A stretch of 62,731 nt of DNA, filler included, from Collodictyon triciliatum (taxonomy: Eukaryota), in the NCBI GenBank assembly GCA_043381765.1. It is 5 parts of 5 records of this genome, joined end to end, with 100 filler letters (N's around TTAATTAATTAA, not from the genome) between each part and the next. Parts side by side here need not be neighbours in the genome. Positions count along the whole stretch, not along the records: positions 1 to 18,373 come from JBHJMP010001376.1; 4 more parts are not named here. One strand, 5' to 3'. Within the stretch, counting starts at the first letter, position 1, and each line of letters starts with the position of its first letter. The translations under genes were made by a program, and so were the position numbers. The notes under the pieces were generated by a model. That model saw only the letters and a list, made by a program, of their open reading frames with translations, did not search any database and was not told where the DNA came from. Positions 167 to 48,046 of this stretch are shown piece by piece.

Positions 167-3100
167 ATGTTTTGGTGGTTATTTTATATGAATCCCCAAA
201 ACAACCAACTAGATCAAATCGCATATCGAGGAGCAAGAGGAGTTCAAGTTTCACAGGAGACAATGGACGTCGTTCCTACTCTCTCTCAGTTCCTGGACCT
301 CCAGTCGCTTGGATTCTTACTGATCCCACTCCTACGGATCGGTGTAACATCCACTGAAACCATTGGCCTTCTGAGCGACGAGCTAAAGACTACACTACTT
401 GCAGGATTACGTGGGGAACAGTTGGAAATGGCTCTTTCATTCTTTTCCAAACTATCATCGTGGGCCAATCTCGTTGAACCCTCTGAAGCGTGGATATTCA
501 TTCATCACTCAGTACCCTCCATTGAGGAAATCGTTCGGAAGCATTCTTCTCCCAGTACAATCCCCTCTGACCCAGTTGCTTATTTCCAGGGATTGCCTCT
601 TAGGACAGAGACCTTCTCAAGTTTAATTGGTTTACTCTATGCAAGTATACCCGGAGCATCTCAAAACCCACCCACCCGGAACAAAGACACCCTGAAAATC
701 ATACCAGAGACACCCACACAAGACCCCACTGATAAGACCAACTTCAATAGCCTAAGTGTTGGGGCAAAAGTCGCAGAAGGTGGTCGAGGTACTGCTCGTT
801 TATTACCAAATTACTTTACAAAAATATTTCATTGACAATTCTTTATTTATACACATACTGAAATGATACATATTACCTCCCTTCAAAAATCAACCTTTTC
901 GACGAACTATTCATAAGATAGGCCCTTGTAATTCCTCTGTAAACTTTAATTTTTTTTTTTACCTCCCAAACTCTTGTTTTAGTCAACCATGGTAAGGAAA
1001 AAGAAGAGCAAAACCAAAAGCGACCAGGAGCTTCGTCCTCAGACTCCAACATGGACCAAGGAAACAGAGAAGAGGCATCCTACTCTAGGAAAAGACCATC
1101 AACCGAACGTGATAAAGCTCCTTTAGATTCTTTATTGAATACTATCAAACAAGACAAAAATATGTTTATGCGATATGTCGCCTCTAATACTCCCCAAGGG
1201 GTGGAAGAAAAAATCGCAGATATCGTCAAAAAACGAAGAGAGGTAGAGCCTGTGACAGGAGATGGTCCAACAAATCAGAACCATACCGATAGTTACAAAG
1301 GGAATCAGCCTAAGCATAGAAGTTCTGAGCATGACAACGGGAATCAAAACCAATCGATCGTTTCGGGACGACAAACGACGGTTGTACAAGATTCTAGCCC
1401 CAATTCAGGTGATCTGCACATTTTTGTTCACTTTGAGGACGAAATTTATAGTTCAGAGGTAACTCCGTTTCTTCTTTCCACCGCTCCAAGTCTTGGTTCC
1501 TACGAATCCATCGCTTTAGTACCAGAGCTGGACCGATTTCAAGGTTTACATATGATAAATATTCCGTGTGCTCATTGCATACCAGACGAAGAGATTGTTT
1601 TGACGCTGCTTCTGGTCAATAATCACACAAAACAGCCTGCAGAGGTGTTGCATTATACAATTCGTTATCAATCATCTTTTTCTGTTTTGTTGGTAAAGCA
1701 TCAAATTGAAGGAAACCAAAAAGCTGAAGAAAAACCCTTCCCGATTGATTTATATATTCAAGCTTTGGCTCACCTTTTTTCCGGAAAGCTTTCCTCTGTG
1801 ACATCTGTCCTCTATCCACCCCCACCTTCACAGCTTCTCATGATGGTATTCAACCCTATCGAATCCCTCAAAGCACAGCTGCGTCCTCTACACATCTGGA
1901 AACTCCTTTCTTTACTATATGAGCTGAAGCCGCCCAACATTTTTGAGCTTTCTACATATGTACTGTTTCATGTTTACAACAATAAGTTCTACGGGAATCT
2001 GTCTATAATCCCAGCCAAGGCCAACAACACGATGATATGTCCGCTTCTCTGTGAAGTTTTTAATTTTTTCGAGTTGTCAATTTCACAAGGTCGAGGAGAT
2101 ATCATACCAAAGAATGTACTATTTACTAGCCTCCATTATCTTCTACTGGACTTAATAAGCCTTTCTGATGAGGATTTCATTCCAGTTCTAGCTTTATTCA
2201 ATTTGTCTATCCACAAAACACCAGGTATATCATTTTCGGTTGTTGAAAAGTTGGAATATAATATGAAATCAAAGAAAGAGAGGTCCGACACATGCATCGA
2301 AAGTATGCTCAAATCATTTAGACAGCTTTTAAATCACCATGAGATTCAGCATATGGCTTTCCATCCCCTCTCTGTATGCACTCTTCTGAGTTCTGTGCTC
2401 CCGCTTACTGCATCAATTAGATTTATGTCATGCATTCTGGAATGCCTTGATTTTAATGGGTCAGGAAGTTCAGATATGATGGATTCTAATGTCCTTTCTC
2501 TGACTAATATCCGTGATGAATTTGTTCATGGTATCGCTAAGGAATACAAAGATAAATTGAACATTATTGAATTGAGGCAAATAGTACAGACTCTACATGG
2601 AAGGGGCTGGACCCGACACTCTTACGACTGCTTTTGTGACCTCATCGAGAGAACAATCTTGACAAAAAGATCCTCTAGCATTCTATTTGATCTGATAGTG
2701 GCCGGTAAAGATTTATTGAACGACCGTCTTGTGCAGTCTATTTTATCCAGCCCGGTTGTTTGCTCGTGGAATTATATTACCCGATGGTTATTTATTATTT
2801 TCGAATCAAATCCTATGAAGCCAATCGTCAAGGAGCTGGAAGAGGGCATCCTAACGTCGTTTTTAAATATGCAATATGACCTCCATGCAAGTTTTACAGA
2901 GCTTTTGGTCTCAATATCCGATTTTTTTTCAGTCATAAAGAATGTTACCGTGCAAAATGCTCTTATATCCGCATTTTCAAAGTACATACATACNNNNNNN
3001 NNNNNNNNNNNNNNNNNNNNNNNNNNNNNNNNNNNNNNNNNNNNNNNNNNNNNNNNNNNNNNNNNNNNNNNNNNNNNNNNNNNNNNNNNNNNNNNNNNNN

Positions 3101-6100
3101 NNNNNNNNNNNNNNNNNNNNNNNNNNNNNNNNNNNNNNNNNNNNNNNNNNNNNNNNNNNNNNNNNNNNNNNNNNNNNNNNNNNNNNNNNNNNNNNNNNNN
3201 NNNNNNNNNNNNNNNNNNNNNNNNNNNNNNNNNNNNNNNNNNNNNNNNNNNNNNNNNNNNNNNNNNNNNNNNNNNNNNNNNNNNNNNNNNNNNNNNNNNN
3301 NNNNNNNNNNNNNNNNNNNNNNNNNNNNNNNNNNNNNNNNNNNNNNNNNNNNNNNNNNNNNNNNNNNNNNNNNNNNNNNNNNNNNNNNNNNNNNNNNNNN
3401 NNNNNNNNAACAGGACATAGTTTCTCATAACTCGATCACTGATGAGTTGATTTGTGCATCTCTATCATGGATTGGATTGCCAAAATCGACCTCGGAGTTG
3501 ATTCACACGATGAATACATGGGGGCCGTTTTACGGAAATCTCAAGTTATACGAAGGCTATTTGAGCAAGAACTTGAGAGAACGTTACAAAAAGCTTCATA
3601 GCATGATTAAGTCTTCAGGAGACCTGATCATTTCAGAAAATATATCATTTAATCTCATTGAAGATTTTCATCGATATAAAGAAAAGTTATCTATAATATT
3701 TGAAAGTGCTGTCGTTTCAAAATTTAATGAATTGTTTCATACTTTCACTGAATGGAAAAATTTGGTCAAATACTTGGATAGCTTTTGTCATGAGTTCTTA
3801 TCAACATTGGAAAATAAGTCTATATTCAACGCTGTGTTGGTTCATCTCTCAGAAATCAACGAATTATGGGGAAATTTAACCCCACTAACAGCCAAATCAA
3901 CAATATCGCTTGACGCATTGTGCCCATACATGCACTTCTTTTATTCCCTACGAAAGAACCCCATTTTTATGAATTGTTGGAAACATCATCTACAAAAGAG
4001 CCAAAACTCGATTTTCTCAGCTCAAGTCACACCAGCAAACCCTTTGGACATGCATGTCATTCAAAATCTGATCAAAGTCCTGGTGGGTCCTGTTGCATTG
4101 AGTTCTGCTACATTTTTACAACAAATAGACTCTAGAACTCTTGACATTGTCAGATTTAGTGATTTCTGTTCGCCCCAGTCGGTGGAGCGTGACGTTATCG
4201 AAATGAATGATTCCATAAAATTGATAAGTCTTCCACCAGTTTCTATCAACAAGGATACTCTGCGAAAACTCTCAATATATCAAAAGATGATTCGGTCTCT
4301 CGAACCCATAAACAAGCTCCTTTCAGAGTTATCAATTGATGAGATGCTTTCTCCAGGCAGTCAGCTGCAGAAAATCAGAGCAGAATTCAGCCAGTTGCTT
4401 TCTAGAGTCCATACACCCCCTTCATCTTCTGAGGCGATGGACACATCTGACTCTCACGAGAAAACGAAACTTAGTCTGAATATTCTATGCGAAAATTGGA
4501 CTCCATCCTATGACTTGTTTTATCAAATCAATGACATTTCTGTCTACATATTGAATATTACGACGTCTTTTATAATTGGATTTCTGGAAAAGCTTAATGG
4601 CGGCAATTGGGAGGGAATTTCTACCTTGTTTGAAATGTGCACAGTAAGGTCAAAGTCTGACGTTCATCATCGATTAATCAGAGATTTACGAACAACCTGG
4701 CAAATTTATCACCCAGTGCTACTATGGAAGCGAACTTCGCCTCGCACTTTGGAGGGATTCATAGAATCAATATGCTCCAATCATTTCTCAGAGTCATCCC
4801 TAGAGGCCATACACAAAGTCTGCGATAATGTTGAAGCCATCGAAACTATACTCTCTAACGCTCTTCAAACCCCATCTAGTCAAGCCCTTATTGACATGAA
4901 GTCTATCAGCCAGCATTCTCAATTTCACATCCTTCTTTCCCTTACCGAAACAACCCTAAAGACAGTTCCTACTGGCGATTTTGAAAGAGAGAATGCAATC
5001 AAATCTTTCAACATTGACGACCTGGAGGCTCTAAAATCACGTTTGAATCTGATTTTGTCGCTTGGCAGGGAGAGTGAAGAATCGAAGATGGAGGCCATCA
5101 AAGAATTCATCGAATGTATCCAAGCATTGTTTAAACTGTTTCATTTGCTGTGTGAGTTGCATAAAATAGGCCACCCTGAATACATTAATCAATCATTTGT
5201 TTTCTCTCCGCCATTTCTAATTACTGAGATAAATGAAAAATACAAAAATGACGAATCAAAGTTGACCAGTCTCAAAAATCACGTTAAGGACCTTCGTTAC
5301 ACTCATTATGTGGTGAATTTCTTTACTACAAGGCAGCTACTCCATCTGGTATGGCTCGGTTATCCATTCAAAATCCCTGGTGAAGCTCATTTTCTGCATT
5401 CCATAAGGAAGCTGATACCTCAAGAGAGCGACGAGGGTATTAGATCCATTCTACAGCACTCCTTGGTTGAGAGGGACTCTGATTATACCATAAATGAAAA
5501 GTTGACCCTTTTGTGCTCCAGAATAGAAAAGCTCAGTGACTTTATGTTCGAACCGACAAAAGAGGCCTTGAGACTACCTGCAGCTCCATTGGATTGGCAT
5601 GTTCTTCGTCGCAATGAGCCAAATGTTCTACTGGCTCCCGATTCTGCGTCCTTATGGACAATATGTCTGTCTCTATTTTATGGAATTATGTCTCGGCTAC
5701 CTTTGGTGGATGAGGTGCTTGATTGTACTCCTAGCACCTCGCTAGAAACTGTGGAAAACTTCCTTCGACGTTGCTTCAAAAACAATACAAATAGAGGGTT
5801 ACTCTATATTCTGCTAGACCCTGAAAACTTGCTATTCGACATTCAAGAATCTGCATCTAGATTCATGAAAGCAGAGATGCCCACCACATTTCCCCCCTTA
5901 CTAGTTATTTTGTCAAAGTCGAAAGAGCGCCAGCCCTTATTGGCCTCGCTATCAAAATGTCGCCGTGTTATGTCGCGTTCTAGCTACGATGTCGAAACAC
6001 TTCGACAAACAACTCATGAACTTTTGCGAAAAGAGTTGTTGGATATTCATATATTAACAACTGATAGCCCTGGCGCCGGAAAAACCTTTTTTGTCAAATC

Positions 6101-9100
6101 AAAGTTCAGAGAAGCATCCATCCCATTCAAGTCAATACAGATGAATGCTTCTACTTCTTTTGAACACGTTGTGGAACAAGTACAGACTTCTTTGGAAAAG
6201 CATAATTATCTCTACTTCAACCTCGGTGTAACGTCGATTGCAGAAGTTTCCAAATTGTTCTTCAGATTGCTGATACAAAAGAGTCTTGAGACTGAGAATG
6301 GTTTATTGGCTCGCATACAAGGCTCTTGCGTATGTTTCCTTATCATTTTTATTTCCCTTCTTTTCTGCTTTAATTTTCATATTAATTTAACAAATATATT
6401 TTTCAGTTTTGGCACTTTGATTACATTTTTTCAAAATTTTATTTCATAGACCATTTTTATTGAAGTCCCAAACATGAACACTGGTGTCACGCACCCCGCC
6501 AGAGAATTTTTGGACATTCTCCCAATCACAACAGTCAATACTGAATTGGACGTTACTATGAATAATCCGGATATGATAGTCCACAGAGCACATGGTATTC
6601 CACAGAACATGATACAATATGTCTGTAAAACAATCAACTTCCTCCAAGAGAAAAGGATTCGCAGTAATATTTGTGACCCGTCCAAATTGCCAGCCCTTAC
6701 CGCTCAGGCGTATGATTTGTCTCATGGCTCGTGCCATTTAAAACATGAATACTCTTGACTTCATAAAACCTCTATAACTGTATAATTATTATGATTATTC
6801 CTTTTTTTTTAACATTATAATTAATTGTTTATGATTCATTCTATCTTCACTTTTATTAGCAAACCAAAAAGCTATTTCTATCAATATAACATAGTTGCCA
6901 GGAAATTTTGGACCAGCGATGTAGACAGAAACGACCACTACAAATGAATTTTGTCAAAGTATGTTACAGTCAAATGTCTCTGTATGAAGGTAGCCCCTAC
7001 CTAGCACCCAGACAAATTATGGAATACACCAAAATTCGAGAGCACCTAATAGAGACACTGCTGGAGGCAGCACTCGATTTCTCATCAAACTCTTTAGATG
7101 AGTCTATGATGGATGAAGGAACATATAGGAATCATACTCAATATCATCACTTCAAGTTAACGAGGCTGTGGTCCGACTCTGAGCATCCATTGGTCCTTTT
7201 CAATTATAAAGGAGAGGGGTCGTTGACAGCTTTGGTTCCCTCTACAAAGGAATCTTACAGATTTATTCTGGACAAACTGAAGGCTATGAAACTCAATCCG
7301 CCTGATCTAAAAACTCTTACAAAGAAGGACTCTTATAAAGTGCTATCTATTCTCTTTGGCGAATCACCTCAAAAAATTGAAAGCATAGCAGAAGTTCCTG
7401 GCAAGGAATTTATTTTGACGAAAGACAACTTGCTAAAAATGATTTCCATATTTTTCCGATTGAAAGCCGGCTTGCCAGTAATAATTATGGTAGAGCTTAT
7501 GAAAAATATCATTAGTATCTTGAACCTTAAGATGACATTTCATATTTTTCCATTTGAATTTAACCTTAATTTACAGAAAAGACTATTTTTTAATTGTATT
7601 TCATTAAGTCACGTTAACTAAAGCACCATAAAATAAATAGGGAGAGACAGGCTGTGGAAAAACACGCCTTATTCGATTCCTTTGCGATGTGATGGATGGT
7701 TTCAGTTTGAATTTAGATGTTCATGGTCAGTTTTTAATCTTGGATTAATAAGAGAAAGACAACAGACAAAAAGACAAAAAATTGATATGGTAACCTCATA
7801 AATTCTGCTTCATCTTATTTGAAATTATTTTACATTAAATACCAAGGTGGAATCAAGGAAACTGATGTTAAGGCAAAAATCACGGAGGCAATAGGTAGAT
7901 TTATATTTCGAACCAAAATAGCAATTTTTTTTTTAATGAACGAAGGTTTTTTTTTTTTGTTAATGTTTTTCTTTGCTGTGTCCAAAGCTCTATCCCAGGA
8001 ACATCCAAAAAGACCTGTTTATGTTTTCTTCGACGAGATTAACACTGCAAATTGCATGGGGCTATTCAAAGGTAAAAATTAATCAATAAAAAAATCAAGC
8101 CTTTCCATCAAAAGAGGAGCATGCAAAAGTAGTATTATTCATAGTAACTAAAGTATGGATTACAATAAGTTAATATTCCATAACATCGATACAGAGTGTC
8201 TCTGCGACAGAAGCTGCGACGGTCTTCCATTTCCACCCAATCTGTTCATAATTGGGGCATGCAATCCATATCGATTTTACACAGAAACAGAGAATAGAGC
8301 AGTGGCTGGGTTAATCTTTAAGTATTCATCGCCAGAAAGTCATGTTCTTAAGGATGATATTTTGGACAAACTTGTGTACTTGGTCTATCCTATACCCCCT
8401 TCCATGGCTTTGCATGTCTGGGATTTTGGCTCATTGTCAGAAGTTGATGAAACTGAATATGTATCTCACATTGTGAAGAATGATTCGTTGAGTGTAAGTG
8501 TATATGCTCATAGATTGAGTTGTATTTTAGTACAACACTTATTTCTCCCATTTCATATTGTCTACTTGTGTATTTTATGTATTATTGTTATCAGTTCATT
8601 TTTTAGCCCTCTTACATAAATCACTATATTCATTTTGTTGTTGTTGGTTATAATTTTGAGTCGCAATATTACATCTTATTTGAAATTTCCACGCTTAGGT
8701 CGAAAACCAGGAGTTGTTTACGAAGGTGGTCATGATAGCACAAAGATTCCTTCGGTCATTCTACAAGGACCCTTCATGCGTGAGTCTTCGAGATGTTCAT
8801 CGTTGTGCTGCCCTTCAAAAATGGTTCTTTTCTCTTGAGTCGGAGCGGCAAGCATTCTTTGAAGCCGAAAGGGAGAGAGGGAAGGTATTCCCTGTTGTCA
8901 ATCCCGAAACTCGATCTATCGTTTTGGCTGTGGGTTGCTGCTACTATTATAGATTGAGGTACGTGAAAAAAATGATTTGATGTGCACACTGTCCAAATGA
9001 AGTAGCTACACCATTTAAGAAGGTTGCTCATATTTTCCTTTATGATATCACCAAAATTTATTGAATAGTTCGCAAAACCGATCAAAAATCTCTCTTGAGA

Positions 9101-12100
9101 TCTCCTCCGCAACCGTACCTGCACAAGACAAGTATCGCTCAAAGTTAACAGCTGGCGCTCGACCAAAAATTCAATCCACTGATTTCCAGACCATCCTCGA
9201 CGCAGAACAAAAGTGCTACATGAATTCTTTGAAATTTCCACCCAATACATCCTGCAATTTTGCGCTGACAGAGAATTTATTTTTGATGATTGTGGCTATA
9301 TTCAACTTAATGCCCGTTTTGGTAAGTGTTTACATTAATTTTTCGTTTATATACTCATAATCAAACACTTTCATGTCTAGCTCCACCAAGTGATGTTAAA
9401 TTAGCAATTTTAAAACAAAATAAACAGATTGTCGGAAAGCCTGGGTCCTCCAAATCATATGCCATTCAGGTTCTGAAGAATAATTTTAATGTTGAAAAGA
9501 AAAAGTCTGGAATATTCTCTACTTTCCCATCTTTGGTTTTTTACACATACCAATGTTCGCCTTTGTCGACAGCTTCAGGCAAGAATTGCGTCATTACCCA
9601 TAATTCTTTCTTTTTCATTCTGTATGCTTGCCTGTCACCGCCTAGTTTCTACTCGTTTTACAAATTGTATCCCACCAAATTTAACGATACCTTGTTATAA
9701 AGGTATTATGGATGTGTACAATAGAGCCAAAATAGGACAAACGACGAACATGCTCCCAGTTGTTTTACTTGATGAAGTTGGCTTAGCAGAGCAGAGTCCA
9801 GAACTCCCGCTAAAAATTCTTCATTGGATTCTTGATAAACCCTCTATAGCTGTGGTAGGAATCTCTAACTGGGAGTTAGATGCAGCCAAATCAAATCGAA
9901 TGGTAATTTTTGGAAACCTTTGCAGCTGTCATAGTCATTATTTTTCAAATAAAGGAGTCCTTCACCTTTTTTTTTTGTAGTTATTTTTTTTATTTTTTTG
10001 AAGGATAACAGATATTTTCACAAAATTCTGAAAAATTTCATCAAAAAGTCCATTATGTTCCCAATGAATTCTCCATATTTGCAATAATGTGATGAAACAC
10101 TGTCCTATAGCTGGTATTGAATAGACCAGACCCCAGCGTCCAGGATTTGTCGAAAACAGCTGCTGAAATCCTGGGCTATAGTCAAGAGCTTCACAGAGCT
10201 GAATTGGCGGCATTAGAAAGAATTTCATCAGCCTATAGAACAGTGTATGTCAATCATCAACCAACTCTATGGTTGCAGCAACAGGGCAAACATCAGCAGG
10301 AACCATCTAAAGCGAAGGACGATTACTTTGGTAATACTCTTTATTTAGTTTATTTTCGGCACATATCAAGCTTTCTTTCCTGTCATCTAGTAATCAATCA
10401 CTTCAAACATATCTTACATCCCAAACATTTATTCTCTATCTGTATTCTTTAGGCATGCTACTCTTTTTATATATATATATATACTCGTTGTATTCACTTT
10501 TAATTGAGCAAGCAACATCTATTGCTTTTGTCCTAAATTTAAATGTCCAATATGTCGTTTTTTGACTATCGTTGTTTTTAGGATTGAGAGATTTCTACAG
10601 TTTCGTAAAATTCATGAAACGCCACTCTTTGAGAATAAGCAGCGAATCTATATGCGAAGCGGTGTGCCGTAACTTAAATGGTGATAAGAAAGAAGTTCTC
10701 TTTGAAAAACTTGAGGTTTTCAAAAAACATCTTGGTGTGCAGGACCTTGCACCTATCCCGACGGTAGATTTAGTGTTGGGCAATCTAAGTGACAAGGCCT
10801 CCCGGCACTTGATGTTAATAACCGAAAATAACTATGGATTACAATATCTTATTGACGAAAATATTTTAAGACAAGGTTCTGCCAGAATTCTGTATGCCGC
10901 AGATTATACAGACAATAAAGGAGAGGCATATATTAGCCGAATTTTGTTCCAATTTCGTGAATGCATGGAAGCAGGTCACTGTGTCATCCTCATTCAACAA
11001 CAAAATATATACGAGAGTCTATACGACGTTCTTAACCAAGTAATCATGACAATCAATGAATTATCCATACTTCTCCACTAACATAGGTGTTTTTTTGTTT
11101 TGTTTTTAATCAGGCTTTTTATATGGTACTTTGATGTTTCATGAACATTTTCAAATTGAGAACAATTCTGCATTATAGCATTACGTGACCGTTAACAGCC
11201 AAAAATGGTGCTACCTTCCTATTGGCTCCCACGCAGAGGAGTTGTATGTAGTGCATGAACGCTTTAAATGCATAGTTGTTTGCAATCCCGTGGATGCATT
11301 TTCGCTTCCTCCACAAGGACTGCCTCCTCCTTTCCTAAATAGATTTGAAAAACAAATGGTGACAACCAAGGAACTTCTCAACGACTTACATCAGACAGTC
11401 ATCTCCATGCTAACGGTATAAAAATCTATCATTAAACATCATATTAAGTAGGGCTCTGCCAAATAATTCTATTGTGCAGAAATCGAGACAGTATATAATG
11501 CGTGTATCATGAATCATGTATGCTTAATAGGAATGGGTCTCCTGGTTGACGCAGGGACAAAACTTTTGGAGACCTGATAACATATTCGCTGCATACAGTG
11601 AGAAAATGTATGAATCCTTGGCAATATCTGTCTGTAATAGCATAAATAGTACTCAAGAAGCATTCGAAATGGCAAGGAATCATTTACTGTGGATTTCGAA
11701 GCCAGAATGGATCTTATATACAAAAGGAAAACCTGTATTATTTACTTATTTATTTCTTAAACAAGGACAATAATTTTATTACTAGAGTATCTTTTATATT
11801 TCTGTTTCAAAGATTAAAATAAAAAATACATCTTTCACCTCAATAAGTTGTTTATTTTTTTCACTAATAGGTCTCAGAATCCCCCAGCATATTCGATATT
11901 TACTTTCACAAGCAGATCCATCAAAACTTTGCTGATTTACTCTTCTTTATTAAAGATGGAAAATTGGGAGATAATTTTCCTCATGTTAGGAGAAAGAGTT
12001 TGCACTTGTCTATTTGGACCCATTCCATAGCTACTAGTCTGGATCAGGTACAAAAGTTTGTCACCATGAGGTTCGGTTATGATGTGATGAGCTTTGACCT

Positions 12101-15100
12101 CGGTTGCTTACCCACCGAAAACGAGCTGCATGACATCTTATCAAAATTCTACGAAAAGCCTGGGGAAGCTTTTCTGTTTGTTTCCTTTCAGTCATCCTAT
12201 TGCTCTCCAGAACGGTTAGACCACCTCAAGTTCGCTTGTCTAAATTATCACCAATCATTCGAGGCAGTGAATCAGAAGCATATCATACTATTTCATTACA
12301 TATCGCGCACTTCTCTCAGAGGTGGCAAAAGCCAGATTCACAAGAACACATCCAAGAGACAGACCTCCATCTCTTTTGATAGAACATGGGTCAATATATA
12401 TTTGGACAGTCTCCTTCCTGGAAGTTATGAAGATGTTCCTGAATTCACCACCTTAGCGCAAAAATCATTTTCTGAGGCTATATGTGACCCTAGTGTCATT
12501 GACCTGAGTCGACTAATTGAAAAAGAGTTTGGTAGGGCTATGCCCATATCGATGTCAATAGCTGGATCTGGATGGACGGAACAAATATCGTTGTTCTCCA
12601 AATTGTTTTCAAGTAGCGGTGACACTGAGTTTCGGAAAAAATTTATCGCTAGACTCCAAAGTTCCTTGAAAATAAAAGCGAATGAAGCCGACGGGTCTTT
12701 GATTTGGTCTCACCAAGATGAGGACGACATTAGGCTACTTGAGAGAGAGGGAACTCTGAGAAACACCATGTACGAAAAGGTGAAAGAAATATTTTATGTT
12801 GAGTTGTCTTCCATTTTGGACATAATTTGTTATGGGCACAACTTGAGGTTGTTGGACTCTGAAGAATTGGGACTGCTCAGAGACACCGTCCGGGAGATTT
12901 GGTTACAATTTCTATCATCAGACCACATTTGGAAGGTGGAGGGCACTTTGAAAAAGGGTCAGGCAAGCTCAGGACTGTCAAGGCGTGTTTTACAGACTGG
13001 AACTAAGGTGATGTTTCCATTTAGTACATGCGTTTCCGAAAAACTGGAAAGCTATCATGGAGAAATTGGGGCGAGCTTGGAAGCATCAAGGAATACTCAA
13101 GGGTGTCTAACATCGCTCGAGGGCATCACTAGAATTACGTTCCCTTTCATATATTCCATGTCTCTGGATTTCGTAAATTTATTGACTTTGAATTACGTCT
13201 CTGACTTTGTTCGTTCCTTGGAGATTCTATCGATTCACAAAAACTTTGAAGTCCGGGAGACGGTATCGACATTTTTTTCTGAATTTTTCCATATCGCCAT
13301 AGAATCCTTGAAAGTGAGGCCTTACATACACACCGTCCATGTAGTCTATTGGACTTATCGATCTTGTTTGCATGAAATGAACCACATACTGCTTTATACT
13401 TGCAGGACAACCGCGCAGAGACTTGTCGAATCTTGCCGCAAGCTGAAAACACATTCGGTTGTGAATATTTTGATTTGTTATCTCGATATAGTTATGCAAG
13501 ACCCTAGTTTTCATCAAAGCGATTCGGGATGGCTATTATTCAAACTTCGAAAGGTTCTCACAATCTTGGAAAATGAAATTAAACTGTCAAGACCATCCAA
13601 TCTTACAAATCCAATTGCAGACACGGAGGTAGAGAAAGTAGCTATTCGCTATCACTTACTGCACATATCCCACACGATTACATCTCGTGTGCACACCTCC
13701 CATGCTCGAGAGGTTTGTTCATCATATTTGCTGTCGCTTGAATCTGTTGTGAAGCATATGACCGATATAAACTCGACTTTATTGTGGCACTCTGTGGTGA
13801 GGCTATGCAACAAACTTTCCTCTGATTCCGATGAACCCAGTGAACATTTGAACGGTATACCCCATGACATTCTTGTGAATATAATTATCACGCTCCCAAT
13901 CTCTGACCCTGAATTAGCAAATGAAATCTCTGGAATTATTCTGAATCTTGAGACATATGCATCTTCCCACAATATCATGTTTGAGGCTAGTATGCGCGCT
14001 TCCATTCTTAGTCAATGTCTACTGATTGAGGGTTGTTCCTGGGGAAGCAGTCAAATTCGAAAATATCTGTCTGTTAAATTGGCATCTTTAACAGATATCA
14101 ACTGTGAAGTTTCTGCACTCTACTGTGAAACATTCCAAGACTATCTGAGCTCATCGGTTCGGCTTGATATTCATAAAATGCGAGGACTGATGAAGAATTA
14201 TGGGTTTAAGATTGGTTCTACTATCGAAATATTGGAGTCACTGGCGCACAAAAAGCAATTTATTGACATGTTATCGATGGAAATTGTGTCTTTTTATCGC
14301 GAAAATCAAATTATAACTGAAGAACTAAGCCAATTATTTGGAGAGTTTTTGCAGGAAATTGAAGACCCATTCTTGGTGCCGCTAATAAAATACGCAATTA
14401 AAAGGCTATATACAAATGGAGGATTTCACTTGGCAAGAACACTGATTTTATTGCTTTTGAGGAAACATTCTACGTTGAAATGTTCCCTCATCATTCAGAA
14501 GTTCAGTCAGCAAAACTCAAATCATATTCCCTTATCGGTCCCATTTTCACACATGCCCAATCTAACACATAACCATGATAATTATGTGAAAACGTATGCA
14601 GCCATAGCAGAGTGTATAGAGTATTCCATATCTGGAGCGATGAACTCACTGCAGAGCCTGAAAAAATTGATGGATTCTCCTGTGTTCAAGAGAGCTTTTA
14701 TATTGACAATTTTTGATCGGGTATTTTTTTATTTCATCTCTGGTCTCTCTCTCTCTCTTTTTATTTTTAATCTGATCATTTTCCCTTCTAAAATCTTCTA
14801 CCATCATATATTACGTAGCTGTTAAAATTCTCATTCAAATGTTAACCACCGTGATTCTTTATTTTGTTCATGTATTTGAAGGTCTATTTAAGGTACGCCT
14901 CAAACGACCCGACAACAAGGAAGATGAACTTGAAAGAAATAGAAGAATTTGTGGAAGAGCTACCATGGCCGCGACATGAAAAACCATTTTTAAGGTCTTT
15001 GGTCCGAAATCAGTTCCCGACCCAAGAATTTACTGCAAAGCCTGATATTTCACACGTGAATGCATACATGATAGCACAAATTGTGCACTTCTATGCGACA

Positions 15101-18100
15101 ATAGTCTCCATCTCACCAAAGTCAACACCTTTTTACAATTTGATGTTTGAAACTGACAAATGCATGGACGATTTTTGGATTTCAATAGCCGATGACGCAC
15201 GCAAGAAAGAAGCAGGTTTGACGCTAATATCATGGCATAATTATTTACTTACGTTGGCAATATCAAGCATAGCTGGTTAATTTATATTTTTGAGATACGA
15301 ATAGCTTTAAAAATTGATTTTTCAATACCTTTCTTCACCCATGAGCGAATAATTGTGGAGTCTTCTTCTTGATTATGTCTCATAATGTAGAAAAATTTAT
15401 AAACACAAACCATGGTGTATACGTCTCTCCTAATGGATGCCTTTATCCTGTGTGGAATTGCACATGGCCAATGGAGGTAGTACGCTGCAATGAATGCGGT
15501 CGTGAAGATATTGGAGGTCGAAACCACCTACCTGTATGTAGTGAATCAATAGCTTTGCTGCAAAATCTAAAATTATGTCATTATTTTAGGAAATCTCTAT
15601 GGTACATATTAATCAATCGTATTTTTTTTTTTGTTGAAAAATCAATTTTTCCTTTTTGTTTTCATTGTTATTCCTGACTCTACATTTTACTTTCTTTGCG
15701 CATGAAAGCTTGCTGGTCATCGTCGTGTAGTTAAAGATGGAGACATTGCTCCTTTTCCTTATCCGTCTCCCAGGGTATTTATTTCAGAGTTGATAGAAAG
15801 AGCCCCAAAAGGATACGAAGTTCCTGTTTCAATGGCCAACAACCGAGGCTACACTGAACGAGGCCTCCCTGTCATCATTTTCCGGATTTTGCGATTTATG
15901 CTTCATTCTGCATTGTTTATCTCCAGCAGCTTCTCTGGATATTCCGTTCGCCCAAATCTTGACCCCGAATTTTTCCACAAAATGGCTCTTGGTGACTGGG
16001 TGATAATGCGAGAGGTTACGAAAAAAAGCGACGAAGACATATCCATCATCATGCACATCAGCACGACATATTTGGGGACAAAGAATCCCCAGGATTTCAG
16101 TTCTTTGGGTACCTATGAAAAAAGAACTGAGTTTGAGACATATCTGAACGATGTGATTTTGAATGAAGTTATGAAAAATCCATCCAATGTGATTTCGGAA
16201 GGACGTCGCATCATCAACAAAGTCCAGGAAATGAACGAGGGCTTCTGTGAAGACATGGAAGATCGCTTGCCATTGTCCGATATACGAGATATTCACTTCA
16301 TCCGTTCGAGTCTTCCATATCTGTTCCGCCAGAGATATCCACTCTCTATCGACATTTTCATGAACATCGCCATACGCGATTCCGTTGTCATACAGAAACA
16401 GAAAGCGTTGGCCGCCATATTGCAATATGAACGAGACATTCACTCACTCAGGTTATTTTGAAATGAAAAATCATATATCGACAGTTAATGCATATACATC
16501 TCCTTTACTCCCCCTTAAAGTAATTGCATTTTATGCTCGCATGAGGGGAACATGTAAATTTAAATAAAATCCTGACAATATAAGGGTTAGGGTTGGTCTT
16601 TTTATAATTTGATTTATGGTGTTTTGCATCACTTTCCTCTATTGAATACAGCATAATTCTTTTTAAGGTATCTCCCCTCGATGGTGAAATGGATGAAGCA
16701 TCTGCACACCTTATACGACAAAAGAATTCGCCGAGAAGATGCTCGCACTATAAAGATGGAAGAAGCTCTTCAGAGTTTGGGTGATTCGATGAATACGGGA
16801 GAAGTAAAGAAGATTTTCTCTGAATTTGCTCTGGGCTGGAATTGTATCCGAAAGACAGTGGAGGAGGAGATGCAGAAGGAGTCGGCAACCATCGAAGTTC
16901 CTGTGATGGACGAAAGCGTAAATAGATTTTTTTTTTCAGTTACCTTTTGATTCTTTTCACTTTTTTTTTTTTTTGCAATTCTATTTAGAATTTTCATTCT
17001 CACTAAAATTGCATTTCAACTAAATAATGTTAGACTCCGATTGTATTTGCTTTGACTAATCCGGGCTCCGAAGGCAAAATTCCTGCTTTCCTTATCAAGT
17101 TCCTCACCAAGATGCAAAACGATTTAATCACCACCGTCGTCCTACCTTACGTATTATTTTTCCCTTTTTACCTGCAGATTCTGTTCACTTACTTACTCTT
17201 GTATGTAGCAAAAATGACATTTTTTTTGTTTTGTTATTACCTTTGCTAGAGAAAACTTGTCTACGACGAATGCTCAATTGAGTTGTCTCTCATAACCCCA
17301 TTGGACGTCTTGAATATCGAAATTCACCACGATGGCTCCCTTGAGTTTTTGAAGATGCTGCGTTCGGCGAGTCGATTATCTTTCGAATACGGACGCGGAG
17401 TGCAAATGGACTTTGATTACGAAACACTCAACTTTTATGTCCTGTCCAGTTACTTCTTCAACAAACCTTATCTTGGCAAAAATGAGAGGCAGCCACCTTG
17501 TCTTTCGTGAGTCGCTTTTCTTCTTTCTAATTTACGTGCTCATGATATTTCGGCCCCTATGTGTTTGCCCGACAGATTTTGGTGCCTCTGTGGATGTGTA
17601 AAAACCCTTGTATTTCAATCGGGTCTCTCAATGCACATGAATTATTCTCCTTAATATAGGACGTTCCACTTTTCTAATGAAATAACCATCACTGATACGA
17701 TGGACGTGGTTGCAGCAAAGATACCTCAGCAAACATACAGCCCAGGTTCGTCTTGATGAAAGCTTAGAAATAGTTCAATACTCGGAGATAAATGTTCTGC
17801 TTTTATTGTTTTTTCCACATGCTCTATTTATTATAAGAGTTCCATTTGTAATATTTGGATGAGAAAAATAAGTAATTACATGAGTGATACTGCCGCAGAG
17901 CTTGCTCAACATGTCACCTCCGAGCTTCAGTCGCATCCTGCGCAGGTGCAGAGTTTGATGCGCCTGATGGAATATTCCATCAACTGGCTCCGCATCACAG
18001 GAGGAGACCCCGAAGTGACCATCCACACGTACTTAAGCACAAACCTGCTTGTTCCCGAAGTTCCTGATCTGCTGCTCCGCTTCCAACTCAAGCACACACA

Positions 18101-18182
18101 GGCTTTGTTCCACAGCCTATCAAAGATTGTCAACTCTGACCCCGAAAGCCGTGTGGCCCCGATATACCGACAAACACTCTCT
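167..18182 (+). CDS. RNF213: RNF213/mysterin-like giant multi-AAA+ ATPase / RZ-finger E3 ubiquitin ligase (multi-exon, 3' truncated at contig end)
   Basis: Spliced ORFs give RNF213 motifs in the correct order: TDSPGAGKT (~6060), PVIIM|GETGCGKT (7480/7641), DVHGG, VFFDEINT, IIGACNPYR, LVYLVYPIPPSM..VWDFGSL, VSLRDVHRC, ALTENLFLMIV, VGKPGSSKS, YQCSPLST..GI, VVLLDEVGLAE.SPELPLKILH, VGISNWELDAAKSNR, FGLRDFYS, SRHLMLIT, IYESLYDVLNQ, FLNRFEK, RZ finger (15417-15527). The first exon (to 788) joins 983 through a phase-1 GT-AG intron. The start codon (167 or 188) is uncertain, and an N gap lies at 2994-3408. Confidence 0.93.
2994..3408. other. Assembly gap (N run) inside the RNF213-like gene
   Basis: 415 N; reading frames are open on both sides. 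Confidence 0.99.
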
Positions 18183-18231
18183 GTTTGTCTCAGATATCTC
18201 ACTATGACACTTTGTTGCAGTGTTTTAATGA

Positions 18232-21758: not shown

Positions 21759-27829
<6,071 letters not shown>

Positions 27830-29350
27830 CGTGGGCTGCAGGGATTTGGTTAAGCAGTGAGTGACGTGCTAGTCTGCTTGTTTGTTTGTTCTTCGTCTTT
27901 GTGTTGCCCAGGTTCTGTGGTTAGTGAGGCGTGGGATTCTACGGGACAAAGAGAAGACTGGCTGTCCGCCCTTAAATAACCCAGTGGCCCTTTGACCCGG
28001 CCATATTTATAATGGCATGCACCCTGGCTTGGGTGATAAGGGTCTCTGTATTATGTGTGTGTATATATATGAGCGCTTTGGTGTGGGTGTGTGAAGTGTG
28101 ATCGGGCGGCTTCTTTTGTTGTGTCCTTTCTTTGAGAGGAATTGATGGCGCGTGTGTTTGTCTGCATCGCTTCGGAATTTGACTACAGTGTCGTTTCCCG
28201 TGGATTCCTAGTGGCTTCAAAGATTATCGATTGCTATGGGTAGTGTTTGGTACATTTCCTTTCATGGGTTTATTGGTGCCGTGGCTATTTGGTATGTGGC
28301 TCGTTTGTGCTGGAATGTAACTTGTCCCTAGCATTTAAAATTATATATATCATTAATACATTAATTATATTTAATACATTATAATCTATATTTCATACAC
28401 ATTATGGTTATTAGGTAATTGATAAATAATATCCACAAATAGAAAATAGATTTCTCCTTTGCTTTTTTTAAATCGCGTCCTGAGGGTATTAATCTCCGTG
28501 CAGGGAAGAATGCAGAACGATTAGTGTGCACGGCGCCAGCATATAAGAGCCAAGGTGCCAGTGTACTACTTGCGTGTAAAAATATGCAGGAAAATGTAAT
28601 ATCAGTTATGATTATAAATTATATATGTATCAAATAAAATTTTATAAAATTATAAACTTAATGCTATCTACTTTGAAACAATTAACTATTAGCAAGGTAT
28701 CGTATAAAGGAGGGAAAATAAAATAAAATATCAGCCCGAGGAAAATGGACCATAAATTGGCTTTGGCTTGCGCAATTATAAAGAAGAAGCCATTCCATGT
28801 AAGTTTTCGTGAGTTCGTCACCCAAGTATCCAAAAAGATGAGATATACAAATGATGTAAGTTATTCTGTTATTATACCACCAAATTGAAAATAAATGCAT
28901 TGAAATCCCTGCATGTCTACCTTTTTAAGATGTTACTTGATAATTTTAATTTTGAATCAAATGGGCCTTTTCTTTCAATATAACTCCTTGCCCAAAAAAA
29001 AAACTGACAAAATACCTGAACATATTCTTACGTTTCATATTTTCATATCTATATATTATTAAATAAAAAAATACCCGAGCAATAAATCTCACGAAATTGA
29101 TGGGTTAATTTCAATTATTTTTATTTTATTTTTTTTAAAAAAAAAGGAATCTGATGGGGCTGAGGGAAAAAAGGAACACCTTCTGTCATCTTTGGATTTA
29201 GTTATAACACCTGGTCAACAAATATTGCCCAAGATAGCAGCATCGAAATGGCCACATTTAATTATTTTGCCTTGACGCCTGAAATTAGACATTTTTTTCA
29301 GGACATAATAGTTTAATATATTCGCGCTTTTTCTCTTCTGCCTTGCATAG

Positions 29351-31602: not shown

Positions 31603-34600
31603 TTAAACCCTTTTTGACTCGATCTTTACACGATACAAAAAATCATTCCTCGAACCAACCCACAAGGAAGAGGTCGAATCAGCGACTGGCGATGAAAACA
31701 CATGGCCGTCCAAGGTGGTGGTCGATAGTATGTCACCATTGTGTGGATTCAAAATATAGAAAGTGCCACTAATTGTAATTGCGCAACACACAAGGCATGC
31801 AGAAGGGGTATCTTCATACTCTGTTGGTTCTGGAGAAGCATGCTTCGTAGACGTACGAGTCATCAGCAAATAGGGGGACGATGCAACAGGATTTCTTACA
31901 TTCGTATTCCAAATAATATTTCCGAATATCTTATCTGCGCAATAAACATGGCCATCATGAGAACCAACAAAAATACGATCCGATATTTCAGTTGAATATG
32001 TTGGGGAAGAAAAAACTGGGCCGTTGAACTCTACTCTGAATATAACAGACCCATTGTCAAGTGAAAAACACATCAAAGATGGGGTCTTGACTAATCCCAG
32101 GTATGCCTTGATAGAGTACATTTATGTCAGTATTTTTTTTCTGCCCAATGATAATATACGACAACAAAATGCAGCTTCTTTTATTTTTTAAATACTAGTT
32201 AATATCCGCATGTCTATATATAAATCAATTATATTGATATATTAAAAAGGTTTCCTAATAAATACTTTGTCATTTGTGATGTCTAAACAAGGGGTCGAAA
32301 AAAGAGGGCTTTTTGTATCACATTCCCAGACAATTTTCTCACTATCAAGAGACAAAGCTCTAATGTGCTCATCATGACTACAGATGATTAGGTGTGACCT
32401 CTTACTATCGATAAGTAAGTCGCAGAGTATTGGCTTCGAGCAGGAAAATACGACTCTAATACCGATAAGTGCGTATCGAGAGAATGAATACCAAAATTAT
32501 TTTTTTGAAAAGCATAGATGACAAACGATTTAAATTGAAACCCGAACCTGTTATTTTCTTTATCCAAAGAAAAGGAATAGATGTTCCCGTCATATGAAGC
32601 GCAAAGCAGTCTTTTAAATTTTAAGAAAAATATAATTTTTAATAATATTAATACATCCATTCGCTTATTTTCCCTCCTCTTTTTTAACGTTGTATACGTA
32701 TATTACAAGTTGCTTACCTATCTGTCTTTGGGTCATAAACAGGCGAGCTTTTAATCATCGCTAAAGTTTGGAAACTATAAAGGATGTCTCCCGTCACCCA
32801 ATCCAACCCATACAGAATACCGTTGTAACACCCGACGAATAAAAGTAAGGAGGATGTCTTTTTGATAAAAACTGCTCCGAAATTACATTCCAAACGGTCA
32901 GGGAGCCTCTGTGTCCAGGTGCTTTCCTCCTTTTCACCATCCAAACACACAACCAAGCCAGAATGAGATCCAATAATGATATCATTACTAGTACATTCTC
33001 TTCTTTTTATTGCCTGGCCAGTTTCAAAAGGATAGTAGTCATCCTTATCCTATATTTTCATAATAAGCAGTAATAATAGTAACAAAAAACAAAAACGAAA
33101 CAAAAAACAAAAAACAAAAAAACAAAAAAACAAAAAAAAAACAAAAAACAAATATAAATACAAAAGAGAAAAAAAATATATACCGCATTTACTTACTGAT
33201 GAATTATACATAATAATCAAAGGCGATGCATCAATACATTTCTCTAAATTAGCAACAGGTTTGACAGTCAACGAAAATTCAACATTGGTATAATCTGTCT
33301 CCATGACATTGCCCATTTGATTCGATAAATCCAATACTAATGCGTTTGAAGTATCCAGAACTCTGTTGGAGCGGTAGTTGAATTTCAAAGGGCTTTTTGA
33401 TACCGGCTCAAGTGTTCGTTTCCGAGTTGGGATCATGGGTGATTTAGGAACAACATGAGCATGTACAAATGCCTTTTCTTTTGTGGCTTTTTCGTATCTA
33501 ATTCTACAAAACCAGTTCTCCAGTATGTACGCTATTACACCCTCCAAATTAAAGTTAATTAATATTTGGACAAATTCGGGTTGAGCCATTTTGTCAATGC
33601 AAACTGAGCTACCAAACTTTTCGCGTACAGCCTTTTCTATCTTGATTGCAACGCGCTTGAGCTCAATTGAATGGAAGCCGAATTCGGGCAAGAAATGACC
33701 GAGAATGTTGATATTTGGATTTGGTTCTTTTTCAGATGAAGCCTCGCCACTTTTTATCCTTGAAAGATGGAAGATAATGAAATCGATAATCATACCACAC
33801 GAAGGGTTCAAGAGACCATCGCCAATATCATCGACAAACAACCTTAATGTTTTTTCAAACATGACTTTCATCGTAATATTCTGGGTCGAAGAAAACTTTC
33901 TTATTGTAGTGTACATGCCCCACAAAGTTATGAGAGATTTTACAGAGGACGCTAGCAAAGAATTCCAAGATATTGAGGGATCATATGCTTTGAGTTCATT
34001 AAAAATTGGGTGCGTTTGGGAATAGCTTCCATTACTTGCGATTTCTTCGATCAACCTAATGGAATATTTGTTCAAAATTTCATATAATGAGGTTTTTTTC
34101 CCTTATAAGAAAAAAATTGATACAGCTTTATATCTCGCTCCCTCTCATAATATATATATATGTCTTTTACCTATCTTTGGCCAGAATCTTGAGCCTTCTT
34201 TCATCAGTTTTCCCAGTTTCCTTGGTAGGGAAATATTCAAATTGAAAAATACGTGAAGGAAGAGCAACATTATGAATGGACTTTTTCAGATTTTGCCTGA
34301 TTTTCGCTTCGTTAAACGGACTTTTGCAGGTAATGCATGCTATGATAATCTCCTTCCTTTTTTCAACATTTTCGAAACTCTCTGCGTCCTCAAGTTCACA
34401 TGCAAGCACTTTGCACATTTGAATGTTACCATAGTCTGATTCGATGATAAGTTTTTCAACAAAAAGCATGTCGAACCTAATCCCATTGATTTTCTTTTGA
34501 GAATCGCTTCTCCCGAGACAAATGATGCCGAACTTTGGGTGTTCATATCCAATATCGCCAGTATAATACCATCCAGATTCGTTTGCGATTACAGAGGAAT

Positions 34601-37088: not shown

Positions 37089-44983
<7,895 letters not shown>

Positions 44984-47351: not shown

Positions 47352-48046
47352 ATGGTAAGACTCCGACCCTCCCTCCGTTAAATTGAAGCCTCTGATTTCT
47401 GGCTGCGGTCAGCGCCATCCACATCCCCACCGGGGATGCACAAGATCGCATGGCAAATCAGAAACTTACCCTGAAACTCACCCGTCTCAAATGAGGGAGT
47501 CACAGCGATTCTCGATAAACTCTAGAGAAAAAAAGCAGATTGTTAAGGATTGTAATTACAGGGTGGGAGGGATGCATAAGATCCACAAATTCTTTCGATG
47601 GTATCGACACCACGAACGATCCAGAACGATCCACAATGTCGCATCTCTGCCTCAAACTCTCCTAAATTTCGGGCCGGTCGATCCGATCCTAACACATCAA
47701 ACACGCTTTGTACCCCCCACACTTATGCACACACACACACACACACAGCCGTCGCAGAAGTCCTTCATCATCAAGCGCAAGCTTGCCAAGAAGCAGAAGC
47801 AGAATCGCCCGATCCCCCACTGGATCCGCCTCCGCACTGACAACACCATCCGGTACGCTGGCCCACCACACCTCTGCTCACAACTCACTCTCCTGAATCA
47901 CAAAACAAACCCGCTAAGATTCGGAACCTAACCTGTCAGCGAAGCTCCGCCCCGCTCCAACTCACCCCTCCCTTTTTTTTTCTCCTTTTGCCTTTAGCTA
48001 CAACTCCAAGAGAAGACACTGGCGCCGCACCAAGCTCGGCTTGTAA
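47352..48046 (+). CDS. RPL39: 60S ribosomal protein L39 (eL39), 3 exons
   Basis: Exons 47352-47354 (ATG only), 47749-47852 and 47998-48046 give [51 protein letters not shown]. Confidence 0.98.

Follow-up and report, generated by a model that had tools for sequence, protein, structure and literature searches.

The window, a 62,731-nt stretch of the Collodictyon triciliatum genome, contains on its plus strand an RNF213-like gene for a giant AAA+/E3 protein and, within that gene, a short exon for an RZ-type finger. The main features are the following.

1195..18194, plus strand: RNF213-like gene for a giant AAA+/E3 protein, in about 19 coding blocks; the extent given is a minimum (tblastn with P0001 and P0002)
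7641..7664, plus strand: Walker A motif GETGCGKT of the AAA core (regular expression)
15216..15390, plus strand: intron upstream of the RZ exon, 175 nt, GT..AG (joint in the X1 and X2 RNA contigs)
15391..15533, plus strand: RZ-finger exon, 143 nt (splice joints in RNA contigs and Pfam PF20173)
15534..15708, plus strand: intron downstream of the RZ exon, 175 nt, GT..AG (joint in the X1 and X2 RNA contigs)
15709..16458, plus strand: exon following the finger exon (LAGHRRVVKDGD...), part of the C-terminal region (tblastn and RNA contigs)

The gene was delineated with P0001 and P0002, two paralogous genes of the EukProt Diphylleia rotans transcriptome set showing 36.7% identity to each other overall. 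Both P0001 (residues 47-4514) and P0002 generated colinear tblastn matches in the window with every block present, and the gene is open and colinear with a 4572-aa homologue over about 4500 residues. The AAA-core exons of the window are 65-90% identical to the matching part of P0001 (83% for the Walker A exon in tblastn), ORF 2880-6449 matches RNF213 chains in the PDB (E 3.8e-8), and Pfam AAA and AAA_5 match P0001 and P0002. The core is of the dynein-like AAA type, as that of P0001 aligned with the core of the Nematostella vectensis 'E3 ubiquitin-protein ligase rnf213-alpha-like' (P0008), one of two named full-length relatives found, at E 1e-124. The C-terminal region including the finger also aligned between these two proteins (P0001 3832-4495 to P0008 4810-5460, E 1.6e-25); in mouse and human RNF213, the part after the finger is the CTD on which E2 docks. 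The exon at 15709-16458 shows 48% identity to P0001 3928-4177 in tblastn and is covered by RNA contigs; window positions 15706-16461 generated only a weak match to RNF213 chains (E 0.19).

Pfam detected no RING in P0001, in P0002 or in 15 ORFs of the window, and a RING regular expression gave 0 matches in P0001, P0002, P0009 (an RNF213-like protein of Diversispora eburnea) and the plus-strand frames of the window, against one in P0008. The gene was therefore labelled 'RNF213-like, RING-less', and the finger is the sole recognisable E3 site in the window, P0001 and P0002. CBM_20 was likewise undetected by Pfam in the window ORFs, P0001 and P0002. The host gene, from a freshwater protist, is intact and expressed and belongs to the RNF213 family, without a RING. 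Its product is a further RING-less RNF213-like protein, here from a deep branch of the eukaryotes. Such a protein is consistent with an old functional unit consisting of the AAA core, the RZ finger and the C-terminal region.

RZ-finger exon and its transcripts

Two runs, X1 and X2, which appear to be RNA, each provided one contig joining 15213/15215 to 15389/15391 and 15533 to 15709, with GT..AG at both joints of the RZ exon. The borders 15391 and 15533 given in the first-pass annotation, which was made from the sequence without database searches, are exactly the points at which these contigs splice. The exon is expressed. It consists of the final two bases of a Glu codon followed by 47 codons, KFINTNHGVYVSPNGCLYPVWNCTWPMEVVRCNECGREDIGGRNHLP, and the window translation in the frame starting at 15390 is EKFINTNHGVYVSPNGCLYPVWNCTWPMEVVRCNECGREDIGGRNHLP. 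The RZ-finger motif occurs only once in the window in all six frames. Both introns flanking the exon are 175 nt long; as their sequences are unlike, the equal length is regarded as a coincidence.

The same annotation had read a Ser codon, TCT, at 15426 and had asked for TCT to be checked against TGT. In-frame reading gives TCT at 15426-15428, and the X1 and X2 contigs contain 0 other letters over 15389-15533, so TCT stands. At 15157 the contigs differ from the window by a C>T change (synonymous, GAC>GAT), and they are therefore not simply the window's own data. As the exon is reproduced without a mismatch in contigs from two runs, the Ser is not a sequencing error. A single base separates TCT from TGT, which would suit the explanation that the Ser arose by sequencing or assembly error, or that the gene is a pseudogene; that explanation is nevertheless refuted by these contigs, by the presence of Ser at the same position in two paralogues and two metagenomic relatives, and by the colinear gene remaining open over about 4500 residues.

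Residues and conservation of the finger

RZ fingers, defined only recently, are E3 active sites that attach ubiquitin to lipid A and RNA. Exon 15391-15533 encodes a finger of this type. Against Pfam ZnF_RZ-type PF20173, with a gathering cut-off of 27 bits, the window finger scored 38.2 bits within the ORF and 39.5 bits (E 4.3e-10) as the exon alone; together with the RNA splice joints, this bears out the proposal of an RZ finger on its own exon. Its relatives with Ser in the place of ligand 1 scored 35.5 (P0001), 33.3 (P0004), 22.9 (P0002) and 17.1 bits (P0006), so that Ser-type fingers span 17-40 bits, two of the five under the cut-off, versus 76-77 bits for canonical fingers. A phmmer search of PDB sequences with the 48-aa exon returned no RNF213 chain and one unrelated match (E 2.1), and a profile was therefore needed. 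A search of the PDB with a profile of nine fingers, five Ser-type and four others, recovered nine different RNF213 sequences, with E-values from 1e-15 to 2.2e-15; the alignment sets the Ser/Cys of the window against human C-P-N-G-H. In the colinear homologue, the finger occupies the place of the RZ finger of RNF213.

Residue roles were taken from the available text of PMC11549300, PMC12075652 and two bioRxiv preprints. The six RZ residues are C4505, H4509, C4516, C4525, C4528 and H4537 in human RNF213, as given in the part of PMC11549300 consulted, C4451/H4455/C4462/C4471/C4474/H4483 in mouse RNF213, and C1849/H1853/C1860/C1869/C1872/H1881 in the excerpted description of ZNFX1. The corresponding positions in the window, all on the plus strand, are listed below.

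15426..15428, plus strand: Ser (TCT) in the place of zinc ligand 1 (human C4505); RNA contigs identical, Ser in five of five Ser-type fingers
15438..15440, plus strand: Cys (TGC) in the place of zinc ligand 2 (human H4509), from the alignment
15459..15461, plus strand: Cys (TGC) in the place of the transthiolation nucleophile (human C4516, mouse C4462), from the alignment, role from the literature
15486..15497, plus strand: C-N-E-C, in the place of zinc ligands 3 and 4 (human C4525, C4528), from the alignment
15498..15509, plus strand: G-R-E-D loop of canonical length plus one residue, with Glu at 15504-15506, from the alignment
15525..15527, plus strand: His (CAC) in the place of the general base (human H4537, mouse H4483), from the alignment, role from the literature

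The spacing of the finger is S-x3-C-x6-C-x8-C-x2-C-x9-H. In the alignment, spacing from ligand 1 through CxxC is exactly canonical, while the gap from CxxC to the last His is one residue longer than in human RNF213, placing the His 9 rather than 8 residues after CxxC. The nucleophile-type Cys, six residues past ligand 2, and the His after IGG are both present. In-frame reading and alignment agree with the first-pass annotation on Ser at ligand 1, Cys at ligand 2, and retention of the nucleophile Cys, CxxC and final His. The 'CxxCxxxIGG' portion of the consensus it had quoted is not an exact fit, because of the extra residue after CxxC. That annotation made no mention of this Glu-bearing one-residue insertion. 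With Ser for ligand 1, Cys for ligand 2 and C-x2-C retained, the finger lacks the CHCC set of zinc ligands and is classed as a divergent RZ homologue with non-canonical ligands, not as a canonical finger.

The SPNGC...WNCTWP...C-x-E-C...GG-x-x-H finger is common to the window, P0001 and P0002, which answers the earlier call for further SPNGC-type RZ fingers. The window RZ exon is 79% identical to P0001 and 68% to P0002 in tblastn, and the 984-aa ORF of the window is 38-40% identical to these proteins. P0001 and P0002 share 77% identity in the finger core versus 37% overall, and in this comparison the finger ranks sixth among non-overlapping 48-aa segments and first outside the AAA core. A search of 1.84 billion representatives gave six matches at E <= 0.001. 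One of the six, P0003, was dropped, being a repeat protein that matches residues 26-47 without the finger pattern. Ser at ligand 1 was also found in two metagenomic relatives, P0004 and P0006. Metal-site positions 2, 3 and 4 are C/H, C and C in all five Ser-type fingers, which also share the final His (5/5), the Glu after CxxC in the one-residue-longer loop (5/5) and, except for P0006, the nucleophile Cys (4/5). Selection for a three-ligand metal site and for catalysis would be expected to leave this pattern of C/H, C, C with His and nucleophile. P0004 and P0006 carry CxC (CNC and CHC) instead of CxxC and, as P0006 has also lost the nucleophile, the Ser-type clade may be decaying. As the Ser-type sequences may form a single clade, the co-occurrence of Ser and Glu counts as one evolutionary event.

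Three further suggestions of the first-pass annotation were not supported by these relatives. The upstream His of 'NHG', put forward as a substitute ligand, is not conserved, P0001 having N there, P0002 Y, and both P0004 and P0006 E, and was rejected as fourth ligand for this reason. A coupled rearrangement of both ligands is at odds with P0004, which has Ser yet keeps His at ligand 2, so the changes at ligands 1 and 2 are separable. The supposedly remodelled pocket, N-C-T-W-P-M-E around the nucleophile, also occurs in P0005, which has canonical CPNGH ligands; the Trp preceding NCTWPME is the sole clade-specific residue of that nucleophile segment in the alignment.

A word-index search with the alignment of the C-terminal region returned P0004 itself alone among 8000 scored candidates. 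Metagenomes were scanned with the patterns VWNCTWP and [MY]EVVRC[NQ]E; 122 stretches matched and nine loci passed, none of which was a real relative. All nine read ...FHARHSARRKTYEY...VWNCTWPLD... without the Cys/His pattern of the finger, and these stretches are probably TruA-like.

The P0001 finger fragment and a 9-row alignment were used as AlphaFold2 input. RZ fingers have a beta-sandwich with a short helix at the N-terminus; the resulting model, of moderate confidence (pLDDT 69.1, pTM 0.57), predicts a helix at 10-18, a hairpin at 23-33 and few other strands. Foldseek comparison of the model with the PDB yielded nothing at E <= 0.001, and in VIA-align the best Z among 48,161 chains was 3.5 (RING, U-box and S27e-like rows), with none at Z >= 5.

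Proposed metal site and ubiquitin transfer

Like the finger of mammalian RNF213, the window finger belongs to PF20173, occupies the same site within a giant AAA+ protein of colinear layout, has identical spacing from ligand 1 as far as CxxC, and contains the nucleophile Cys, CxxC and final His. It differs in having Ser rather than Cys as ligand 1, Cys rather than His as ligand 2, a segment between CxxC and IGG that is one residue longer and contains an invariant Glu, and Trp for Gly before the nucleophile, and in its host protein, in which RING and CBM20 are undetectable. ZNFX1, compared by those parts of its published description that were available, has a finger of the same family with the same residue roles; its ligands are the canonical CHCC, unlike those of the window finger, and its host protein is a helicase of SF1 whose E2-binding domain is a Miz/Z-RING, unlike the RNF213-type AAA+ giant of the window. 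P0008, at 22-27% identity, differs from the window protein in having a canonical CPNGH finger and a RING. The Diversispora eburnea protein, P0009, resembles it in being RING-less by Pfam and regular expression and in having a non-canonical RZ ligand set, but the change is a different one: in its Y-R-C-S-C-G-F, ligand 1 is kept, His is replaced by Phe, and an extra Cys lies two residues after ligand 1. Its finger scored 50.9 bits on Pfam and it has CBM20, unlike the window protein.

On balance, we lean towards a working transthiolation finger whose metal would be held by three Cys and an oxygen ligand, a mechanism drawn by analogy with RNF213 and ZNFX1. The RZ active site would then have been built in a second way in nature. 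An E2~ubiquitin conjugate would dock on the C-terminal region, the loop Cys (15459) would receive ubiquitin as a thioester, and His (15525) would act as the general base in its transfer to substrate. The small beta-sandwich that would present Cys 15459 and His 15525 would still be metal-held, with no more than three thiolates of the protein, those of Cys 15438, 15486 and 15495, as ligands of the metal. The fourth metal position may be filled by the clade-specific Glu (15504), by water or by the Ser hydroxyl; by its position in the alignment, the loop Glu is a candidate replacement metal ligand. In mouse RNF213, mutation of each of the four ligands, including C4451, abolished autoubiquitination, and Ala/Ser ligand mutants altered cobalt binding, according to the available portions of PMC12075652 and a bioRxiv preprint. 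As C4451 is essential there, Ser at this position, taken at face value, predicts an inactive finger, against our main reading.

The mouse result fits a finger that is metal-free and held by packing and hydrogen bonds, in the way that U-boxes are in comparison with RINGs, either as a holder of the catalytic loop or as an inactive structural remnant. The loss of ligand 1 in all five Ser-type fingers, the altered CxxC in two of them and the missing nucleophile in one point in the same direction, as do bulky clade-specific residues such as Trp for Gly before the nucleophile, and ZNFX1 itself, in the available text of a bioRxiv preprint, has a hybrid U-box/RING that lost a zinc site. We nonetheless consider a metal-free finger unlikely, since three ligand positions remain C/H, C and C in five of five despite 37-40% overall identity, and the finger is the best conserved segment outside the AAA core; non-binding cysteines would be expected to drift. 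Cys4 zinc sites are common, and the finger contains exactly four Cys; cysteines 15438, 15459, 15486 and 15495 could form a new site of this kind, the nucleophile having turned ligand in a structural finger without transthiolation. P0009, with its own four-Cys arrangement (C-x-C...C-x2-C), would be in keeping with this, but a Cys4 site is very improbable, given that the spacing from ligand 1 to CxxC is exactly canonical and that both the general-base His and the N-C-T-W-P-M-E flank are conserved in the manner of a canonical finger. An improbable variant of the three-Cys site is zinc with one open or weakly held position (three Cys with water or carboxylate) that would be labile or reactive, serving as a redox or metal switch on the ligase or having its coordination completed in trans, whether by another domain or by a phosphate or hydroxyl of the substrate. 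Completion in trans, if true, would link the choice of substrate to coordination of the metal in an RNF213 of ancestral type without a RING.

The discoverers' published alignments, as described in the available parts of PMC12075652 and a bioRxiv preprint, present the four zinc ligands as fully conserved. The protist clade, in which the finger is strongly constrained yet has no first ligand, would amount to a natural compensation experiment on what the metal site needs, and suggests giving the mammalian enzyme Ser for Cys and Cys for His in combination, along with the loop Glu. In the U-box, compared with the RING, Aravind and Koonin (2000) reportedly recognised an E3 zinc module whose fold and function survive the loss of its metal ligands. 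The one-zinc Miz/SP-RING of ZNFX1, in the available text of a bioRxiv preprint, is a similar precedent for an E3 module lacking metal ligands. The folds of U-box/RING and Miz/SP-RING are unrelated to that of the window finger, which still has three of its four ligand positions occupied.

A variant RZ finger on its own exon

Read in the frame from position 15390, the window translates as EKFINTNHGVYVSPNGCLYPVWNCTWPMEVVRCNECGREDIGGRNHLP, in which the serine at ligand position 1 is encoded by TCT (15426-15428). The Pfam family PF20173 (RZ-type zinc finger; curated cut-off, 27 bits) scored 38.2 bits on the surrounding ORF; restricted to the exon, the score was 39.5 bits (E 4.3e-10). A six-frame motif scan found the finger pattern once in the 62.7-kb window. 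The first-pass annotation had matched the finger to the RZ consensus; compared with human RNF213, its spacing, S-x3-C-x6-C-x8-C-x2-C-x9-H, is canonical through the CxxC, but an extra residue ahead of IGG...H had been overlooked. A profile built from nine fingers, four of them not of Ser-type, matched nine distinct RNF213 sequences in PDB (E about 1e-15, a value that is partly by construction) and aligned S-P-N-G-C of the window opposite human C-P-N-G-H.

Two sequencing runs of a single study, X1 and X2, presumed to be RNA, each gave one contig in which 15213/15215 is spliced to 15389/15391 and, further on, 15533 is spliced to 15709. GT..AG ends are present at either joint. These joints define the finger exon and support both borders of what had been proposed to be a separate exon:

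15391-15533, plus strand: RZ finger exon, 143 nt
15216-15390: intron on the upstream side, 175 nt (X1/X2 splice joints)
15534-15708: intron on the downstream side, 175 nt (X1/X2 splice joints)

The two introns are unrelated to each other in sequence, and past the finger exon the spliced product runs from ...GGRNHLP into LAGHRRVVKDGD. The contigs showed 0 differences from the window across 15389-15533, so that the reading of TCT rather than TGT was upheld and the serine is real. At 15157 both differ from the window by T in place of C, read as synonymous GAC>GAT (Asp) and apparently an allele or strain difference; the contigs are thus not copies of the window's own data. Their loose ends resemble cDNA-amplification adaptor sequence.

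An RNF213-like host gene

A tblastn search with two homologues placed 19 colinear blocks on the window, between 1195 and 18194, corresponding to residues 47-4514 of P0001, a homologue of 4572 aa from the Diphylleia rotans transcriptome set. The N-terminal large ORF of the gene matched RNF213 chains in PDB (E 3.8e-8), P0001 aligned with the Nematostella rnf213-alpha-like protein P0008 in two parts, the AAA core (E 1e-124) and the finger with the C-terminal region (E 1.6e-25), and a regular expression located one further motif:

7641: Walker A motif, GETGCGKT

On the basis of these matches, the gene is assigned to the RNF213 family. Pfam detected neither RING nor CBM20 in the window ORFs (15 for RING), P0001 or the second homologue, P0002, and a RING regular expression that detects the Nematostella RING had no match in the plus-strand frames of the window or in these two proteins. 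The product is therefore described as a RING-less RNF213-like protein, of which the RZ finger is the sole recognisable E3 element.

Ser-type relatives and the zinc site

P0001 and P0002 carry SPNGC, sharing GVY[LV]SPNGCLY.VWNCTWP.EVVRC.ECG.E..GG..H, and Ser occupies ligand position 1 in two fragments from metagenomes as well, P0004 (406 aa; S-A-R-G-H, nucleophile Cys present, C-N-C) and P0006 (163 aa; S-K-L-G-C, C-H-C), the latter with Ser in place of the nucleophile (A-K-S-T-W-P) and 17.1 bits on PF20173. P0006, which lies on an 81,676-bp contig of a JGI metagenome, may represent an inactive copy or else a form with Ser as nucleophile. Further homologue searches returned no additional Ser-type relatives, and a metagenome scan for them gave chance matches only. 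Since P0001 and P0002 come from one EukProt transcriptome set, they do not stand for two species; they are two paralogues, or possibly come one from the host and one from a co-cultured organism. The reading frames of P0004 and P0006 apparently run on into introns at the two positions flanking the window's exon, which suggests that the separate finger exon is old in the Ser-type clade.

P0001 and P0002 are 36.7% identical overall, and the window is 38-40% identical to them over a 984-aa ORF; its exon reaches 79% with P0001 and 68% with P0002 (tblastn). In the finger core, P0001 and P0002 agree at 77% of residues, compared with 37% for the whole protein; the core ranks sixth among non-overlapping 48-aa segments and top outside the AAA core. 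A 48-aa segment starting with the first residue of the exon shows 65% identity, exceeded by 349 of 4524 such segments. All five Ser-type fingers, a small sample collected by similarity to a Ser-type query and probably a single clade, share Ser at ligand 1, potential ligands (C/H, C and C) at positions 2, 3 and 4, and the final His. They are also longer by one residue behind the knuckle's second Cys, and an invariant Glu comes next (C-G-x-E). At the Glu position, the five fingers compared (P0005, a canonical-ligand relative; P0007; P0008; the fungal P0009; human) have no insertion and carry Ala (4/5) or Asn. We conclude from these alignments that Ser at ligand 1 is real and constrained.

Published work (PMC11549300, PMC12075652 and two bioRxiv preprints) gives the zinc ligands as C4505, H4509, C4525 and C4528, the nucleophile as C4516 and the general base as H4537 in human RNF213 (mouse C4451, H4455, C4471, C4474; C4462; H4483). 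A 2021 preprint describes the zinc-binding residues as fully conserved among the sequences it aligned. Among the papers listed for the RZ domain or finger, none concerns protist RNF213 or a non-canonical ligand set, as judged by title and abstract opening, and supplementary variants could escape such a scan. P0009, an RNF213-like protein of Diversispora eburnea (4677 aa) with CBM20 and without RING, has Y-R-C-S-C-G-F...G-N-C...C-P-Q-C...IGGENH at residues about 3854-3901, with Phe replacing His and, two positions beyond ligand 1, an additional Cys (C-x-C). This is a second natural rearrangement of the RZ ligand set, so ligand plasticity is not unique to the Ser-type clade.

The variant finger is thus confirmed as an observation, and the interpretation first attached to it is partly supported. 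The upstream His of 'NHG', put forward as a ligand, is not conserved, being N, Y, E and E in four relatives; the Ser and Cys substitutions are no obligate swap, because P0004 pairs Ser with His at ligand 2. The idea of a remodelled substrate pocket has a weak basis, as N-C-T-W-P-M-E also surrounds the nucleophile of P0005, whose ligands are canonical (CPNGH), and only the Trp preceding this motif is clade-specific.

We lean, at slightly better than even confidence, towards a working transthiolation finger in which three thiolates and an oxygen ligand would coordinate the zinc. For the oxygen ligand, the clade-specific Glu is the most attractive candidate, ahead of water or the Ser hydroxyl. 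The Cys ligands and catalytic pair are kept at 37-40% overall identity, and would be expected to drift rather than stay invariant if unused. Against a working finger, mutation of any ligand of mouse RNF213, including the position that is Ser here, abolished activity (PMC12075652 and a bioRxiv preprint). Further erosion is seen in two Ser-type relatives (CxC for CxxC; the nucleophile lost in P0006), and PF20173 scores are 17-40 bits for Ser-type against 76-77 bits for canonical fingers. We consider it unlikely that the finger lacks metal in the manner of a U-box, whether as an active or a vestigial domain. Recruitment of the former nucleophile Cys into a new Cys4 site is more improbable still. 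Sequencing error or a pseudogene is refuted and carries next to no weight. AlphaFold2 modelled the P0001 finger with middling confidence (pLDDT 69.1), and PDB searches with this model gave no significant match.

Other features of the window

Pfam annotated the following outside the finger gene:

31603-35660, minus strand: AMP-binding enzyme domain (E 1.6e-28) and ACSF4 beta-propeller (E 4.5e-28)
42330-42809 and 47359-47931, plus strand: Helicase_C and ribosomal protein L39
61530-62279, minus strand: UPF0004, the N-terminal domain of MiaB-like enzymes

The ORFs of 31603-35660 probably form a single gene like that of ACSF4, the beta-alanine-activating enzyme. Unlike the remaining window, 22001-28000 has raised G+C (0.41-0.51) and strongly positive GC skew (+0.19 to +0.31); two of its ORFs, 22003-22725 and 26782-27555, matched no Pfam family. 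Across the whole window, Rfam gave no match. Sequence words of the stretch recur in small proportions in many freshwater and lake metagenomes and metatranscriptomes (runs X3-X20), hinting at a freshwater habitat for the organism or for close relatives of it; X3 and X11, the two of these runs aligned to the window, each covered about 200 nt of the exon upstream of the finger exon.
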